DNA from: Candidatus Woesearchaeota archaeon
GTDB taxonomy: Archaea > Nanobdellota > Nanobdellia > Woesearchaeales > JACPBV01
Direction: 5' to 3'
Assembly: GCA_016188175.1 (NCBI GenBank)
Contig: JACPII010000002.1
Coordinates: forward strand, 55,379-87,378
DNA: 32,000 bases
The notes beneath the pieces were generated by a model. The model was not told where the DNA came from. It was given only the letters and a program-made list of their open reading frames with translations, and did not search any database. Below, piece by piece: positions 3,069 to 28,411 of the stretch (its first letter is position 1; each line of letters starts with the position of its first letter). Both the position numbers and the translations under genes were made by a program.

Positions 3069-3265
3069 TTTTCAACCTCAATGGCGAAATCGGGGCAGAA
3101 CTTTTCGCAGAGTTGGCACTTCGTGCACTTCCCCAACGACACGATCTCATTCCCTTTTATCATAAGGTCCTTCGCCGGGCAGATATAGACGCAGATAGAG
3201 CAGAGCTTGCAATATCCCTTGATCCAGGTAAGGGGCCCCCCGATTTTTTTCTTTTCAGCTTCCAT
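3065..3265 (-). CDS. korD: 2-oxoacid:ferredoxin oxidoreductase delta subunit (2x[4Fe-4S] ferredoxin)
   Basis: Two CxxCxxCxxxCP motifs (CKLCSICVYICP, CTKCQLCEKFCP). The ATG at 3265 (MEAEKKK...) is preferred over the track GTG at 3277, which lies inside the promoter repeat. Confidence 0.75.
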   Translation of the reverse strand: MEAEKKKIGGPLTWIKGYCKLCSICVYICPAKDLMIKGNEIVSLGKCTKCQLCEKFCPDFAIEVEK

Positions 3266-3332
3266 ATCAATAAACACTTGCGATAAATATCAATAAACAC
3301 TTGCGATAAATATCAATAAACACTTGCGATAA
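3264..3332 (-). repeat. Perfect 3 x 23-bp tandem repeat (unit on - strand TTATCGCAAGTGTTTATTGATAT) abutting the korD start codon
   Basis: Units 3264-3286, 3287-3309 and 3310-3332 are identical. Each carries AAGTG-TTTATTGA, which resembles the BRE/TATA seen elsewhere in the window (AAAAAGTTTATATA). The last AT of the proximal unit forms the korD ATG. Confidence 0.9.
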
Positions 3333-3439
3333 AGGCAAGCCCATCTGAAGGGCATAAACGGAGGTATTTAAACTTTTTCAATGAAAAAATCTTAATAAAA
3401 CCACAACCTTAATATACATTTTACCTCCCCCAGCGGATT

Positions 3440-5302
3440 ATGAGAATCCTCTTGCTGCACTCAGACTTTATCAAATTCCAGGCTGAAAAGCAGGCGATCA
3501 AAGACGCAGAAAAGATAGAAAAAGCAGAGCACGAGGTGCAGGAATGCCTCGTCGTCCTCACCTCTGTCGAAAAGAGAGACGAAAATAACCCCGATGCAGT
3601 GATCAAAAGATATGCGAAAGAGGTTGATGATGTCGCAAAGCAGGTTAAGGCTGACAAGATTGTCATCTACCCCTATGTCCATCTGACGACAGACCCTTCT
3701 TCCCCCCAGGCTGCCCTGCAAATCCTGAAATCGTGCGAAGAGGAGCTGAATAAGTCCTACAAAGTCACCCGGTCCCCTTTTGGATGGTACAAATCTTTTA
3801 CATTAGCCTGCAAAGGCCACCCATTAGCCGAACTTTCAAGGGAGTTTGGCCCTGAAGAAACAAAAGAAGATGAGTCCCAGGCATTGAAGTCAGAGAAAAA
3901 GCTCGTCTCAAGCTGGTTCATCCTCGACACCGAGGGAAAGCTCCACGACATCGGAAAGTTTAATTTCAAAGGCCACGACAACCTCAGGAAGTTTGCTTTC
4001 TACGAAAAGGACAAGGACAGGACGATGACCCAGGAGCCTGCCCATGTTCCCTTGATGAAAAAATTGGAAATTGCGGATTACGAGCCAGGCAGTGATTCGG
4101 GAAATATGCGCTATTATCCCAAAGGGAGGCTTATCAAATCCCTTCTGGAAACCTACATCACGGAAAAGGTCATCGATTACGGCGGGGTAGAAGTGGAAAC
4201 GCCCATCATGTATGACATGGCTCATCCGACGCTGTCAAAATACCTCCAGAGATTCCCCGCAAGGCAGTATAAGATTGAGTCGGACAAAAGAAACTTTTTT
4301 CTGAGGTTTGCAGCCTGCTTCGGCCAGTTCCTCATCGCCCACGACGCAACCTTGAGCTACAAAGACCTCCCCTTGAAGCTTTACGAGCTGACACGGTACA
4401 GTTTCCGAAGGGAACAAAGGGGCGAGCTTACCGGCTTGCGAAGATTGAGGGCGTTCACCATGCCCGACTGCCACGCTTTGGTCACCGGCCTCAACCAGGC
4501 AATAAGCGAATTCAAGCTCAGAAACAAGCTATGCTTCGATGTCCTTGAGAATGTCGGCATAAAAAAGGAGGATGTCGAACTTGCAGTCAGGGTGACGAAA
4601 GAATTTTATGAGAGCAACAAAGATATCGTCCTCGGCCTTGTAAAGGCGATCGGAAAGCCGGCTTTGGTGGAGATGTGGGACGAAAGGACATTCTATTTCA
4701 TCCTGAAATACGAGCTTAACTTTGTTGACAGCCTGGACAAAGCATCGGCATTAAGCACCGACCAGATAGACGTCGAGAACGGGGAACGGTATGACATCAA
4801 ATTCACCGACAAAGACGGCCAGAGAAAGCATCCATTGATACTTCACTGCTCCCCCTCGGGAGCTATTGAAAGGAATATCTATGCTCTGCTGGAAAAAGCT
4901 GCGATGCAGCAAAAGCAGGGAAAGACCCCCTCATTCCCCTTATGGCTGTCTCCGACCCAGGTAAGGATAATCCCTGTCACTTCAGAGTTCACCGCATTTG
5001 CAGGACAGTTCGTGGACGAGATCGCCAAAGAGAACATCAGGGTTGACATCGACGACCGGGAGCTTCACGTCGGCAAGAAAATCCGCGAAGCCGAGATGGA
5101 ATGGTGTTCCTTCATCCTGGTCATCGGAGAAAAAGAGAAGAACCTCCAAAAGCTCCCCATCAGGGTCAGAGGAAACAAAGACCTTGTGGAGATGGCCCTC
5201 AAAGACCTCATCGCCGAAATAAAAGAAAAGACTGCGGGCATGCCTTTCAAAAGATTGTCGCTGCCGAAAGAATTGAGCCGAAGGCCGGTGTTTGTCGGGT
5301 AG
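3440..5302 (+). CDS. thrS: Threonyl-tRNA synthetase, archaeal type with N-terminal DTD-like editing domain
   Basis: 620 aa. The N-terminus MRILLLHSDFIKF...IVIYPYVHL...PFGWYKSF is the archaeal ThrRS editing domain, followed by a class II core (FRREQRGEL.GLRRLRAFTMPD) and a C-terminal anticodon-binding domain. A TATA-like TTAATATACA lies about 27 nt upstream of the ATG. Confidence 0.9.
   Translation: MRILLLHSDFIKFQAEKQAIKDAEKIEKAEHEVQECLVVLTSVEKRDENNPDAVIKRYAKEVDDVAKQVKADKIVIYPYVHLTTDPSSPQAALQILKSCEEELNKSYKVTRSPFGWYKSFTLACKGHPLAELSREFGPEETKEDESQALKSEKKLVSSWFILDTEGKLHDIGKFNFKGHDNLRKFAFYEKDKDRTMTQEPAHVPLMKKLEIADYEPGSDSGNMRYYPKGRLIKSLLETYITEKVIDYGGVEVETPIMYDMAHPTLSKYLQRFPARQYKIESDKRNFFLRFAACFGQFLIAHDATLSYKDLPLKLYELTRYSFRREQRGELTGLRRLRAFTMPDCHALVTGLNQAISEFKLRNKLCFDVLENVGIKKEDVELAVRVTKEFYESNKDIVLGLVKAIGKPALVEMWDERTFYFILKYELNFVDSLDKASALSTDQIDVENGERYDIKFTDKDGQRKHPLILHCSPSGAIERNIYALLEKAAMQQKQGKTPSFPLWLSPTQVRIIPVTSEFTAFAGQFVDEIAKENIRVDIDDRELHVGKKIREAEMEWCSFILVIGEKEKNLQKLPIRVRGNKDLVEMALKDLIAEIKEKTAGMPFKRLSLPKELSRRPVFVG
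5273..5298 (+). repeat. Direct repeat copy A (last 26 nt of the thrS coding sequence before the final G and stop)
   Basis: TTGAGCCGAAGGCCGGTGTTTGTCGG matches 6411-6436 at 25 of 26 positions. Confidence 0.9.
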
Positions 5303-6410: not shown

Positions 6411-6436
6411 TTGAGCAGAAGGCCGGTGTTTGTCGG
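6411..6436 (+). repeat. Direct repeat copy B (relic or duplicate of the thrS 3' end)
   Basis: TTGAGCAGAAGGCCGGTGTTTGTCGG followed by C-TGA reads LSRRPVFVG-stop, the same nine residues as the ThrRS C-terminus, with one synonymous change (CGA to AGA). Confidence 0.9.
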
Positions 6437-11800: not shown

Positions 11801-11820
11801 TAATAATCCTTGCTTTTTCC

Positions 11821-12095
11821 GTGTGTATTAAGCTCCTATCGGAGCGGCTCTGCAATCTTCAAAACTCTTAATGTGTTTCAAGATAGCCCTGCGTCCCCGT
11901 AAGGGAAGGCGAAATGTTCCGGTGCCTTCGGCACGGAGGGCGACCCCCGCGACGGTCTGGCTGTTTTTTTCCAAAGACACAAATATGTATACCCAATTGT
12001 TGTGTCTTTCGATATAGCAGGTGAAATTTTGCATGATTAATTTTGTCACCTGCTATAGGATGGCAGAGCCGCACTTAACGGGGCTTAATACATAC
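11821..12095 (+). mobile_element. MITE-like non-autonomous element, copy 1 (275 bp), flanked by 8-bp target-site duplication CTTTTTCC
   Basis: TIRs are 11821-11836 GTGTGTATTAAGCTCC and 12080-12095 (rc GTATGTATTAAGCCCC), 14/16. CTTTTTCC occurs at 11813-11820 and 12096-12103. There is a nested IR GCGGCTCTGC / GCAGAGCCGC (10 bp). No credible ORF. It shares a 68-nt core and a 14-mer with the element at 27597-27760. Confidence 0.8.
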
Positions 12096-12137
12096 CTTTT
12101 TCCGAAAAAGGATATGACAGGAATCATTAAATAATCA

Positions 12138-13229: not shown

Positions 13230-13417
13230 CATTCAACGGATATTCAAGTTTCCTGCTTTCCCCCTAGTGCATCCATTCCTCCCAACCTCAACTCAAAAAA
13301 TAATGCCGTTCCCGACCATAAGTTTTAAATAGGGCACTGCCGAAGGTAATCTCTAGGCAGCATTTCCTGCAAAGGTTTAGATTATTAATGAAAAAAAGAA
13401 AAAAGAGGTGAACCAAC

Positions 13418-25143: not shown

Positions 25144-25169
25144 CCGCAGCAAGCTGCGGGGTATTTTTT
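25144..25169. terminator. Bidirectional hairpin terminator (CCGCAGC-AA-GCTGCGG) flanked by T-runs on both strands
   Basis: 7-bp GC-rich stem 25144-25159. On + it is followed by TATTTTTT; on - it is followed by TATTTTTTATTT. It lies downstream of the - strand gene 25229..25810 and the + strand small ORF. Confidence 0.55.
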
Positions 25170-25228
25170 AACCTCTAAATGGGTTTTGAATCGTAGCAAG
25201 CTGCGGGGTATGAACCCATTTCGAGGAA

Positions 25229-25810
25229 TCAACTTTGAGGATTAATCTCCTCAAAATGAGCCTGAAACCCCTGATAAGCTGGTTTTTGGCAGAGAAGTTC
25301 AAAAAGCCCTTTCAATCTTTCCTGATATTCATGCGGAACTGGCCCAAAATCCCTTGAGGCACCCCTCAAATTAATTCTGTTGTCCTTTAAATCAAATTTG
25401 CCTCCGCCAATCCCCTTTATAGAAAACATTGTTCCATTTTGCTCAAGTCTTATTATCTTATGGGGGAGATTTCCAAACGCCATTTTTTCATATGGCCACG
25501 AGAAAGGGATTTCGATGATTCCTTTTAGGATTGGCAGTAATTCCTCCCTCAAAAAATTTTCACCAATGTCTTCATGCCCCATTGAAGAATAATCAAATCC
25601 TCTGAGATAAAGCCGGGAGAAATTTTGGTCACCCTCTGCTACGGCAACTTCTAGAAGCAAATACTTCCTTTCAGCACCCGTCCTTTTTAATGCCACCGGC
25701 CCCCTTGAAGTGAAATGCCTAAGCTCTTCGCCAGCATATTCTCTCGATGGGTCAAACCCCTCCCCCCTATCCAACCGATTGGCAAATTCTAAATTTTCTT
25801 CATTGAGCAC
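25229..25810 (-). CDS. Hypothetical protein, 193 aa, no recognisable motif
   Basis: Long ORF in a stretch that looks A+T-rich by eye, divergent from AbiEi, with structured 3' flank. No family assignment was possible by eye. Confidence 0.55.
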   Translation of the reverse strand: MLNEENLEFANRLDRGEGFDPSREYAGEELRHFTSRGPVALKRTGAERKYLLLEVAVAEGDQNFSRLYLRGFDYSSMGHEDIGENFLREELLPILKGIIEIPFSWPYEKMAFGNLPHKIIRLEQNGTMFSIKGIGGGKFDLKDNRINLRGASRDFGPVPHEYQERLKGLFELLCQKPAYQGFQAHFEEINPQS

Positions 25811-26085: not shown

Positions 26086-26808
26086 ATGCAATTAAGCAAA
26101 CTTGAATCACAAGCCGACGAAGCGCTGAAGAAAAACAATCTTGCTATTTTCACGGCTAAAGACCTGATGCTGCTGCTTGGAATTAAACGGATGAAAGCAT
26201 ACAACCTCGCAAAAGCGCTCAAGCGGAAAGGCGCTGTCAATGCTGTAAAAGGCGGCATGTTTGCGTTGGCAGGCACCAATGAGCTTTCTTTTGGCCAGCA
26301 TCTTAACTGGCCTTCTTACCTGAGCTTTTGGTCTGCGTTGAGCTATTACGGATATTCAGACCAGATGCCTAGGACGCTCTTTTACGCATCAGTCAAATAC
26401 ATGAAAAAAAGAGCGAACTGCCAATTCGTTGCATTGTCCAATAAAAGATTCTTTGGCTACACCAGCATAGGGAGCATCACAATCGCAGAGAAAGAGAAAG
26501 CCTTCGTCGATTCATTGTTGTTTCCCAAATATGCCGGCGGCATGAATGAGATAAGCAGATGCCTGAAAAATGCATTGAAGGATATTGACATAAAAAAGAT
26601 GGCCAGCTATGCTGAAAAGGTGGGGAACAAAGCGGTGTTGCGCAGGCTTGGGTTTTTATTGGAAATTACCGGCATTGATAGCAGCCTCCTATCTGGATTA
26701 AAAAAGGGCATAGGCAGCGGATACGAGCGCATTGATCCCTCGCTTCCAAAAAGGAATCATTTTAATAAGGAATGGCTCCTGGACGTCAACGATGATATCG
26801 CTCACTGA
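26086..26808 (+). CDS. AbiEi-family antitoxin / wHTH transcriptional regulator
   Basis: The N-terminus (FTAKDLMLLLGIKRMKAYNLAKALKRKGAVNAVKGGMFAL) looks like a winged helix. The size and the 17-nt overlap with a downstream DUF1814 NTase gene are typical of AbiE modules. Confidence 0.7.
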   Translation: MQLSKLESQADEALKKNNLAIFTAKDLMLLLGIKRMKAYNLAKALKRKGAVNAVKGGMFALAGTNELSFGQHLNWPSYLSFWSALSYYGYSDQMPRTLFYASVKYMKKRANCQFVALSNKRFFGYTSIGSITIAEKEKAFVDSLLFPKYAGGMNEISRCLKNALKDIDIKKMASYAEKVGNKAVLRRLGFLLEITGIDSSLLSGLKKGIGSGYERIDPSLPKRNHFNKEWLLDVNDDIAH

Positions 26809-27538
26809 GCTTAGCGAGTTAAAGAACAGGCGGAAAACCAATCTTTATTACGAAGAGAAGGAATATCTCCAGTATATTTTCCTTCATGCATTATCAGGAT
26901 TTCCGAATAGGTTTGTATTTAAGGGAGGGACCTGCCTGAGGATATGCTATGGGCTTGAGCGGGCATCAGAAGACCTGGATTTCAGCACCACTGCCTCTTT
27001 GGCTGAAGTCAGAAAAATTGTTTCCCTATGCCTGAAGGATTTTGAACTGCTTAACATTAAACACGGGGTTTCCGGAGAAAAAGAGCATCAGGGAAATCTT
27101 CGGATAGAAGTGCGTTTTGAAGGCCCTTTATTTTCAGGAACTCAGGCATCAACAAACACCTTAAAGGTTGATTTTAATAAAACCCATGTTAAACAAAAAG
27201 TTGCAAAAGTTGTTCCCCAGATTTTCTCAGATATTCCAGCATTTACTATCTTTGCCATCGATGAAACGGAGATACTTGCAGAAAAGATAAGGGCTCTGGC
27301 GAACAGGAGCGAATCAAGAGACTTGTATGATGTGTGGATGCTGTTGAGCAAAGGTGTCATAATTGACAGAAAATTGCTGGATGCAAAGCTTAAGGAAGAG
27401 CATAGCAGCCTCAAAAATCTCAAGGTGCCCATCAAACAGGCATACGAGAGAGACCTGAAAGGCCTGCTGCTTTTCCTTCCGCCTTATGTACAAGTCAAGG
27501 AAGAAGTGCTTAATGGGATTTTGAAAGGTATAAATTAA
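26792..27538 (+). CDS. AbiEii/AbiGii-family nucleotidyltransferase toxin (DUF1814)
   Basis: FKGGTCLRICYGLERASEDLDF matches the family signature. The Met at 26792 is preferred to the track start at 26732. Confidence 0.75.
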   Translation: MISLTELSELKNRRKTNLYYEEKEYLQYIFLHALSGFPNRFVFKGGTCLRICYGLERASEDLDFSTTASLAEVRKIVSLCLKDFELLNIKHGVSGEKEHQGNLRIEVRFEGPLFSGTQASTNTLKVDFNKTHVKQKVAKVVPQIFSDIPAFTIFAIDETEILAEKIRALANRSESRDLYDVWMLLSKGVIIDRKLLDAKLKEEHSSLKNLKVPIKQAYERDLKGLLLFLPPYVQVKEEVLNGILKGIN

Positions 27539-27596
27539 GCCCGGTTGAGAGCGGCCCTGCCATCCTAAAGTCAAAATTCCATCTAGAAGAACCACC

Positions 27597-27760
27597 GTAT
27601 TTGTTTAGCATCCTCAGGTCGAAACTCCCTTGAGCCCACCTTGAGTCCGTCGCGGGGGTCGCCCTCCGTGCCAAAGGCACCGGAACTTTTCGCCTTCCCT
27701 TACGGGGACGCAGGACCTGCCAATCTTACGTCGAGAGTTTCGAAGATGCTAAACAAATAC
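27597..27760 (-). mobile_element. MITE-like non-autonomous element, copy 2 (164 bp), flanked by 8-bp target-site duplication GAACCACC
   Basis: Perfect 16-bp TIRs GTATTTGTTTAGCATC (27597-27612; rc at 27745-27760). GAACCACC occurs at 27589-27596 and 27761-27768. An inner stem TCGAAACTC/GAGTTTCGA is present. The core 27647-27714 is the reverse complement of 11888-11955 (66/68). Confidence 0.85.
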
Positions 27761-28411
27761 GAACCACCAGGGAAACATCCTTTTCCTCCCCAATTTGTTC
27801 AGCCGTGTCTCCATCTCAGAATGGTTTTCGAACAGCATCTCATCCCGCTTGAACGCTGGAGTATGATGGAAGCTCCTGCTTTTCCCCTTTACGAATTTGT
27901 GCTTCTTATGGAGCAGCTCATGATACAGGACATAGTCTAAAAGATCTCCATCCTGCCGGAGGGCAGTGCTTATCGTTACCGTATCGCTCCCATAATGGTA
28001 ATGGCCGAGGGTCCGAAAGCTGTGGCTGCCCCATTGCAGGTTCGGGATATCCAATGCTCCATGGAAATATTTCTCATTCAGGGCGGAAAACCGTTCTGCC
28101 AGAAAAGGGTCAACGTTTGTTTTAGGGGACGCAAGGTGTACCTTTTTCATAAAGATGGAATACAGCTCCATCTCAGGCGTTTGCGTAACAAGGGGCGTAA
28201 TCCTTTTCCGCAACAGCTTGGCCAACAGCTCCTGCACAAGCCCGATCTGTATCTCTTTGCTTACTGTCCTCCAATCCCGGGAAAGGTTGAACTGGACATG
28301 CTTTCCCTCCATCCGGATATTCGCGTTGAACGCCTTAAATTTCCCAGAATAAGAAAGTGAAGCGGTGTAGGGAAAATTGGCATACAGCCCATTGATTGCT
28401 TCCTGAAGCAT
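27749..28411 (-). CDS. SprT-like / DUF45-type zinc metalloprotease; C-terminus supplied by the MITE
   Basis: YVLYHELLHKKHKF (HExxH) preceded by WGSHSFRTLGHY. The last three sense codons and the stop (GTA TTT GTT TAG) lie inside the element TIR. Confidence 0.6.
   Translation of the reverse strand: MLQEAINGLYANFPYTASLSYSGKFKAFNANIRMEGKHVQFNLSRDWRTVSKEIQIGLVQELLAKLLRKRITPLVTQTPEMELYSIFMKKVHLASPKTNVDPFLAERFSALNEKYFHGALDIPNLQWGSHSFRTLGHYHYGSDTVTISTALRQDGDLLDYVLYHELLHKKHKFVKGKSRSFHHTPAFKRDEMLFENHSEMETRLNKLGRKRMFPWWFVFV

Follow-up and report, generated by a model that had tools for sequence, protein, structure and literature searches.

A GC-rich hairpin cassette of a modular family of miniature inverted-repeat transposable elements in Woesearchaeota, probably homogenised within the genome

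The stretch of DNA analysed here (the window; 32,000 nucleotides, positions 55,379 to 87,378 of contig JACPII010000002.1, assembly GCA_016188175.1) is part of the chromosome of a member of the Woesearchaeota, a DPANN archaeon, and carries two inverted copies of a 68-nt GC-rich core. Its genes include those for aRF1, SRP54, an archaeal-type threonyl-tRNA synthetase (ThrRS), NadB/NadC, phosphoenolpyruvate (PEP) synthase, a PfkB kinase, PCMT, M50 proteases and an AbiEi/AbiEii pair. The first core lies in an element placed between the divergent genes nadC (minus strand) and nurA (plus strand), the 363-aa open reading frame (ORF) after this element encoding the NurA nuclease, and the second lies in an element between the convergent ends of a 220-aa HExxH ORF and AbiEii. 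This NurA has 100% identity to a protein encoded on a 95.9-kb contig of a Candidatus Woesearchaeota genome bin. The termini and 8-bp target-site duplications of the two elements bear out the proposal of a first-pass annotation of the sequence that they are mobile elements of one family of MITEs (miniature inverted-repeat transposable elements), in which the core, termed the cassette below, is a module common to both. The family falls into two subfamilies, type A and type B, and its features in the window are as follows.

11813-11820, plus strand: target-site duplication of copy 1, left (CTTTTTCC, with the identical 8-mer at the other end)
11821-12095, plus strand: type A MITE copy 1, 275 bp (termini GTGTGTATTAAGC / GCTTAATACATAC)
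11855-11868, plus strand: inner repeat block ATCTTCAAAACTCT, common to type B (13/14 against copy 2)
11888-11955, plus strand: GC-rich cassette of copy 1 (66/68 against copy 2)
11964-11970, plus strand: T7 run after the cassette (type A only; T5 in the type A copy of relative L006)
11973-12057, plus strand: two extra AT-rich hairpin modules (arms 11973-11982/12000-12009 and 12013-12024/12046-12057)
12096-12103, plus strand: target-site duplication of copy 1, right (CTTTTTCC)
27524-27570, minus strand: solo type A right end lacking a left partner (GGATGGCAGGGCCGCTCTCAACCGGGCTTAATTTATACC; 85% against 12053-12099)
27589-27596, minus strand: target-site duplication of copy 2, downstream (GGTGGTTC)
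27760-27597, minus strand: type B MITE copy 2, 164 bp (termini GTATTTGTTTAGC / GCTAAACAAATAC)
27647-27714, minus strand: GC-rich cassette of copy 2 (match to 11888-11955)
27761-27768, minus strand: target-site duplication of copy 2, upstream (GGTGGTTC)

Direct comparison of 11888-11955 (plus strand) with the reverse complement of 27647-27714 showed identity at 66 of the 68 positions, the mismatches being confined to 11915 (T vs A) and 11929 (C vs T), exactly as the first-pass annotation had given them. A repeat search delimited the arms as 11888-11958 / 27644-27714 (71 nt, 96% complementary) and revealed a further homologous block, 12053-12099 against 27524-27570 (85%), which had been overlooked. 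The count of 48 G/C positions in 68 (71%) was reproduced, and the whole window is lower at 47.9%. The hairpins CCCGTAAGGG (CCC-GUAA-GGG, 11896-11905) and GTGCCTTCGGCAC (GUGCC-UUC-GGCAC, 11922-11934) were found where they had been described, as were the 14-mers ATCTTCAAAACTCT (11855-11868) and ATCTTCGAAACTCT, which match at 13 of 14 positions and stand 19 nt upstream of their own cores with unrelated spacers in the two copies. The T7 run had been placed one nucleotide too early, at 11963-11969 instead of 11964-11970.

The ends of the two elements are more regular than had been thought. In copy 1 the terminal inverted repeats pair 11821-11857 with 12056-12095 and give a terminal stem of ~35 bp, and in copy 2 the repeat is perfect over 17 nt and imperfect over ~30 nt (27760-27735 with 27597-27628). 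These long inverted repeats and the perfect 8-bp direct repeats outside them supersede the earlier estimate of only about 11/16 matches between the ends. The whole of copy 1 folds with z = -8.7 relative to shuffles, owing to its terminal repeats and internal palindromes. The family shows the usual characters of MITEs, namely terminal inverted repeats, constant 8-bp duplications, a length of 131-337 bp, short spurious ORFs only, dispersed copies (seven copies or fragments in the window and in the related contigs L005, L006 and L007) and presence/absence polymorphism. The 8-bp duplications are the mark of cut-and-paste insertion, presumably by a DDE-type transposase acting in trans; no transposase is encoded in the window, and neither terminus pattern gave a match in viral-contig scans.

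Copy 2 was inserted 3 nt ahead of the original stop codon of the HExxH ORF, which now ends at a TAG within the type B terminus (27749-27760, minus strand). The C-terminus of the protein is ...WWFVFV* after the insertion and was ...WWFF* before it, so that one insertion has altered both the C-terminus and the stop codon of a gene. The solo type A end at 27524-27570 overlaps the AbiEii toxin ORF of the opposite strand (26732-27538) over its final 15 nt.

A search for further copies, proposed in the first-pass annotation, was carried out by blastn-short in relatives' contigs chosen for NurA proteins 84% and 65% identical to that of the window, and five more copies were recovered, in contigs from two Woesearchaeota relatives. 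L005 and L006, drawn from different samples, are handled as one "sister genome" because their NurA is identical and their overlap near-identical. The additional copies are listed below.

L006 1110-774, minus strand: type A copy (duplication GTGCAAAT; downstream of nadC; ends ~90% identical to copy 1)
L005 1997-1833, minus strand: type B copy (duplication GAAAAAAC)
L005 4562-4432, minus strand: type B copy, 131 bp (duplication GGTTTTCT/TGTTTTCT)
L007 ~5018-4763, minus strand: type B right end (cassette frames around different hairpins)
L007 1-107: short type B copy (keeps only GTCCCCGTAAG)

All five complete copies are flanked by 8-bp duplications, four of them perfect and one matching at 7/8. 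The type A copy of the sister genome occupies a site other than that of copy 1; it stands downstream of nadC, where the window has only the 25-nt nadC-nadB spacer. Likewise, L005 carries nested repeats of ~580 nt, a type B copy among them, downstream of nurA, and none is present there in the window. The duplications are often rich in T- or A-runs (CTTTTTCC, GAAAAAAC and GGTTTTCT; also GGTGGTTC and GTGCAAAT), which suggests, in a small sample, a preference for oligo-T/A targets in intergenic spacers. Independent Logan contigs terminate inside the elements, as expected of dispersed repeats, and these repeats account for the fragmentation of short-read assemblies of this lineage at such positions.

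Other repeats share these sites in the sister genome. A complex insert is found there at the same CTTTTTCC nadC-nurA target that holds copy 1 in the window, and other repeat families are nested with type B (L005 1461-2223; L006 2139-2555 and 3868-3945), one of them with terminal repeats ACTCAAAAGTCGC...GCGACTTTTGAGT, along with other hairpin modules such as CCCCGCCCTTTAG...GCGTTAGCAAAA.

Beyond the close relatives the family was not recovered. Distant Woesearchaeota contigs with a NurA of 35% identity (L031-L033, ~28 kb) held no copies, and no match to the element came from blastn searches of plasmid and phage collections. Genome and metagenome scans with the core pattern (not the termini) returned three matches in GTDB representative genomes, all in named bacterial metagenome-assembled genomes, and 22 in JGI metagenomes; all were judged to be chance because they lie in contigs of 59-72% G+C and show no likeness outside the pattern. 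Six scans of viral contigs (IMG/VR) with core, frame and terminus patterns found nothing, and no match came from two protein searches in which the elements' six-frame translations, concatenated, were used to look for spurious ORFs called across other copies. The sole match in L031-L033 is an exact 14-nt copy of the type A terminus AGCTTAATACATAC at L031 127-140, beside nadA and with no cassette; in this distant, AT-rich contig it may be due to chance or may be a very old solo end.

Comparison of the copies showed that the family is built of separable modules. Type A elements are 275-337 bp long and type B elements 131-166 bp, and their 13-nt termini agree at 10 of 13 positions (GCTTAATACATAC vs GCTAAACAAATAC). 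Inner blocks are common to both types, with ATCTTCRAAAC on the left and GACCTGAGGATG before the right terminus, and the counterpart of the inner block ATCTTCAAAACTCT forms part of the long terminal inverted repeat in type B. Type A has in addition a ~22-nt inverted-repeat segment at each end (GCGGCTCTGC / GCAGAGCCGC). The two AT-rich hairpin modules of copy 1 are lacking in the type A copy of the sister genome.

The cassette is bounded by invariant frames, CCTGCGTCCCCG ... CCCCGCGACGG, the right one taking the form (C)CCCCGCGACG(G), and these frames occur throughout both subfamilies, in every copy from three genomes. Between them lie a CCC(C)-tetraloop-GGG(G) hairpin, with the loop GUAA or GGAC, and a bulged hairpin unit of ~33 nt with a UUC triloop, GGG(A/U)(A/G)(G/A)GCG-N4-G-UUCC-G-stem-UUC-stem-GGAG. 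In copy 1 the order is frame CCTGCGTCCCCG, the CCC-GUAA-GGG hairpin, one hairpin unit (UUCC-G-GUGCC-UUC-GGCAC-GGAG) and frame GGCGACCCCCGCGACGG. The number of units is zero in L005 4562-4432, one in both window copies and in L005 1997-1833, and five in tandem in L006, and in L007 the frames are kept with other hairpins between them. That the core might be a separate tiny element inserted into both MITEs was rejected, there being no duplication around the core and the frames being found in every copy.

The unit has an upper stem of GUGCC/GGCAC, GUUGC/GCAAC or GUCC/GGAC. When eight units, with about three stem variants among them, were aligned by hand on their structure, 67 of 68 stem cells were paired, and the upper stem has undergone two double-sided pair changes (G-C to U-A and C-G to G-C) and one symmetric deletion of a single pair. 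Conserved features are the UUC loop, the bulged G and a lower-stem U·G pair. The compensatory variants in relatives (GUUGC-UUC-GCAAC and GUCC-UUC-GGAC) suggest that the GUGCC-UUC-GGCAC hairpin, pointed out in the first-pass annotation, is under structural constraint. The stem of the CCC/GGG hairpin does not vary among the copies, and folding of the copies gave no consistent closing helix for the cassette.

The way in which identity is distributed among the modules bears on why the two cores are so alike. Within one type across genomes, the termini agree at 12-13 of 13 positions, and between types A and B in one genome at 8-10 of 13. The cassette middle (p2j + p3, from the tetraloop through the hairpin unit) shows the reverse: within one type across genomes it matches at 31/40 (A) and 28/39 (B), about 72-78%, and between types in one genome at 37/39 (window) and 33/37 (sister genome), or 89-95%. 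One type A unit of the sister genome is identical over the hairpin to a type B unit of the same genome. Given that the middle is so alike between the subfamilies of one genome and less alike within a subfamily across genomes, the cassette module seems to have been homogenised or exchanged within each genome. The first-pass annotation had argued from an interior better conserved than the ends to selection on an RNA, but that comparison rested on two subfamilies in one genome, and comparing the same subfamily across genomes reverses it, with ends at 12-13/13 and the middle at 28/39 to 31/40. Its alternative, recent gene conversion, fits best.

Taken together, these results indicate that the core is probably an internal hairpin cassette of a lineage-specific, modular Woesearchaeota MITE family, homogenised within the genome. 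On this model the cassette would be homogenised among the dispersed copies of one genome, likely by gene conversion, template switching or slippage with the invariant frames as anchors, while the termini would evolve under subfamily-specific recognition by the transposase. Gene conversion or template switching at the frames would be the most economical explanation of the identity pattern, and the variation in unit number between direct GGG...GCG repeats shows that slippage or recombination is active there. By likeness to other structured MITEs, any activity of the unit is probably that of a stable stem-loop, formed in read-through transcripts or single-stranded DNA.

Several points weigh against this interpretation. 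Only seven copies from three closely related populations are available, so that few independent events are sampled, and L005 and L006, although from different samples, are counted among these populations as one sister genome. Neither an autonomous element nor a transposase with matching termini turned up in the window or in the viral-contig terminus scans. Gene conversion is deduced from the mosaic identity pattern alone, and a genome-encoded factor that binds the hairpin and co-evolves with it would yield the same pattern. The conserved U·G wobble and bulged G are not expected from upkeep of a palindrome at the DNA level and hint at a constraint at the RNA level.

The family documents, at base resolution, modular MITEs that are active or were recently active in the small-genome DPANN lineage Woesearchaeota, with termini, 8-bp duplications and nested insertions defined. 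Its mosaic, in which termini follow the subfamily and the cassette follows the genome, offers a small but clear example of dispersed repeats evolving in concert.

The closest analogue is the BOX element of streptococci, which is also a small intergenic MITE-like repeat with terminal inverted repeats and target-site duplications. In Streptococcus pneumoniae and S. suis, BOX elements are composite MITE-like repeats of the form boxA-boxB(n)-boxC, in which boxB is tandemly variable and folds independently, and in S. suis two families of end modules (boxA/C and boxE/F) surround the same boxB (PMC3049150). The present family likewise has end modules around a tandemly variable internal hairpin, with 0, 1 or 5 units between invariant frames, and its types A and B parallel the S. 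suis pattern; an architecture of different end modules with a shared, tandemly variable hairpin module is thereby shown in Archaea. It differs from BOX in its DPANN host, a cassette of 71% G+C in a genome of 48% G+C, 8-bp duplications and a ~33-nt UUC-triloop unit. The likeness is one of architecture only, and no sequence relationship would be expected between an archaeon and streptococci. A literature search that was not exhaustive found no paper on this family or on a BOX-like modular MITE in DPANN archaea.

Among prokaryotic MITEs in general, the elements resemble others in their inverted repeats, fixed-length duplications, size below 350 bp, lack of coding capacity, strongly paired folds, intergenic or gene-end location and insertion polymorphism between close relatives. 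A census of such elements placed a Woesearchaeal genome among the most MITE-dense archaeal genomes, with 105 MITEs/Mb (PMC11602168). The present family has two subfamilies with an internally homogenised cassette in common, an arrangement not described in the text of PMC11602168.

The family shares with REP/BIME, ERIC and Correia elements the character of dispersed intergenic repeats with stem-loops. Those elements can affect the stability or termination of neighbouring mRNAs through stem-loops in transcripts. REP/BIME elements are mobilised by RAYT (HUH) enzymes and have neither terminal inverted repeats nor target-site duplications, and the Correia elements of Neisseria duplicate TA. We know of none of these families from archaea and of none that shares sequence with the MITEs described here. 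The stem-loop effects of all three are summarised in the background of PMC3049150. Derivatives of IS200/IS605 (PATE, REP/REPIN) were excluded by the terminal inverted repeats and 8-bp duplications, and the window contains no tnpA or tnpB gene. Integron attC sites, with the consensus 5'-RYYYAAC ... GTTRRRY-3', do not fit the type B ends (5'-..GTTTAGC ... GCTAAAC..-3'), which have the opposite arrangement and agree with the consensus in neither motif; duplications are also present, and the elements flank no cassette of the integron kind.

An alternative is that the MITEs bear the cassette as cargo and that it is a functional structured small RNA, or an RNA module acting in cis, kept by selection. 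This is unlikely on the evidence at hand, although it is the best placed of the alternatives. It would account for the compensatory hairpin changes with their conserved U·G pair, bulged G and UUC loop, for the two differences between the window copies falling at positions predicted to be unpaired, and for the T7/T5 run after the cassette in both type A copies. The finding that cassette variants follow the genome and not the subfamily is also what co-evolution with a trans-acting factor would produce, selection possibly being mediated by a genome-specific binding protein. In type A, transcription would start from a TATA-like box in the terminus and stop at the T-run, which could be a candidate archaeal oligo-T terminator; such a transcription unit is improbable, and type B has no T-run. 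Scans with bacterial-type promoter and terminator models, which do not apply to archaea, found nothing.

Folding gave little support to a defined RNA. The 68-mers of the window have z = +0.78 and +0.63 relative to dinucleotide shuffles, and with homologues included the range is +0.45 to +0.78; the minimum-free-energy folds differ even between two copies that are 97% identical, ensemble frequencies are low, and the reverse strand of the core folds equally well. The description of the core as hairpin-rich therefore stands in that both hairpins exist, but the 68-mer as a whole folds no better than its shuffles. A unit number ranging from 0 to 5, with the middle replaced by other hairpins in L007, is hard to square with a single defined 68-nt RNA fold, and the orientation of the copies relative to flanking genes is mixed (about four sense and three antisense). 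The cassette, a GC-rich segment, resembles the curated structured RNAs of Rfam (ribozymes, SRP RNA, RNase P RNA, riboswitches, C/D and H/ACA RNAs) in combining a hairpin of the GNRA tetraloop type with another conserved hairpin, but no match at the gathering threshold was found in the whole window with Rfam 15, and at E <= 10 both loci and their relatives gave only noise. The best sub-threshold matches, an insect flavivirus 3' untranslated region repeat (18 bits, cut-off 41) and fragments of human long noncoding RNAs, are part of this noise. Descriptor and motif searches located the hairpin and frames only inside the MITEs, and pattern scans of GTDB representatives, JGI metagenomes and IMG/VR recovered no copy outside them. 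The cassette is best explained as neither a new class of RNA, on present evidence, nor a free-standing RNA gene.

Specific RNA classes were also considered and rejected. A riboswitch or leader of paralogous genes does not agree with the unrelated flanks (nurA next to copy 1; the solo type A end and convergent AbiEii next to copy 2). A template repeat/variable repeat pair of a diversity-generating retroelement is excluded since on neither strand are the two differences adenine-specific, and neither copy lies in a variable-protein gene. No tRNA halves were seen that would fit a split tRNA or a trans-splicing leader, and ARAGORN found no tRNA or tmRNA in the window. A hammerhead or hepatitis delta virus-like ribozyme is contradicted by the lack of a CUGANGA core, the wrong helix order and the lack of an Rfam match, and a K-turn by the lack of tandem G·A pairs after a 3-nt bulge.

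A broader form of the same idea, in which the cassette is a mobile, copy-number-variable module of RNA or single-stranded DNA bound by a co-evolving genome-encoded factor, is equally doubtful. If true, binding by such a factor would explain the genome-specific hairpin variants common to two MITE subfamilies, and MITE insertion would spread an element for binding, termination or stability beside the genes of a genome-reduced DPANN archaeon.

Less likely still is that the cassette serves at the DNA level as a recognition or architectural site, either a subterminal site for the transposase or a host factor or an extruded single-stranded hairpin. The hairpin symmetry that survives substitutions and a symmetric deletion is compatible with such a site, as are the invariant frames in every copy of both subfamilies in three genomes, and quasipalindrome correction (palindrome-templated repair) can make "compensatory" changes without selection. 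However, an intact type B copy with its duplication has no unit at all (L005 4562-4432), implying that the unit is not needed for insertion, and a purely palindrome-templated mechanism would erase the conserved T·G mismatch and bulge. The interiors of DDE-type MITEs are generally dispensable for transposition.

The inverted arrangement of the cores, with 97% identity over 68-71 nt, would allow them to be past or present substrates for inversion of the 15.7-kb segment between them, as the first-pass annotation had raised, but this is very improbable. No inversion was seen: relatives without this repeat pair have the same nadC(-)/nurA(+) junction and the same succession of nurA, 116-aa gene, pfkB, PCMT(-), PEP synthase and M50 protease, so that the copy-1 side and the interior of the segment are collinear with relatives. 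On the copy-2 side collinearity comes solely from an independent assembly of the same population, in which the junction of the HExxH gene and the MITE is reproduced. Moreover, each element has matched termini and identical duplications, which recombination between the cores would have swapped, and this argues that no such recombination has taken place in this assembly. That the repeat is an artefact of assembly or binning, with a chimeric join at the repeat, is scarcely credible even for a metagenome-assembled genome of a lineage whose short-read assemblies break at these repeats, for the termini are matched within each copy, the perfect 8-bp duplication of each is peculiar to it, the flanks are syntenic with relatives, and the same architecture is found in independent ENA, NCBI and Logan assemblies.

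Some further features of the window were noted. Upstream of the 116-aa membrane-protein gene, at ~13300-13417, lie a TTTTAAATA box, a hairpin CUGCC-GAAGGUAAUCUCUA-GGCAG and a GAGGTGA ribosome-binding site, which are almost invariant in three genomes (L005 ~2100-2223, L007 ~1340-1455) within a spacer that has otherwise diverged; this block may be a conserved 5' leader or small RNA. The last codons of thrS are duplicated 1.1 kb downstream as a 26-nt direct repeat (25/26; 5273-5298 and 6411-6436) that brackets two genes, one for a 150-aa protein whose function is unknown and one for a 204-aa minimal nucleotidyltransferase (NTP_transf_2/Polbeta). The bracketed pair resembles a small integrated cassette of toxin-antitoxin-like type, the thrS 3' end being duplicated in an att-like manner. 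A 23-nt unit, ATATCAATAAACACTTGCGATAA, is present in three perfect tandem copies at 3264-3333, about 100 nt upstream of thrS. Finally, a 20-nt direct repeat, CGYAGCAAGCTGCGGGGTAT (95%), occurs at 25145-25164 and 25192-25211, 47 nt apart and just downstream of an Ocnus-like gene (25229-25810, minus strand), and each copy contains the palindrome GCAGC-AAGCTGC.

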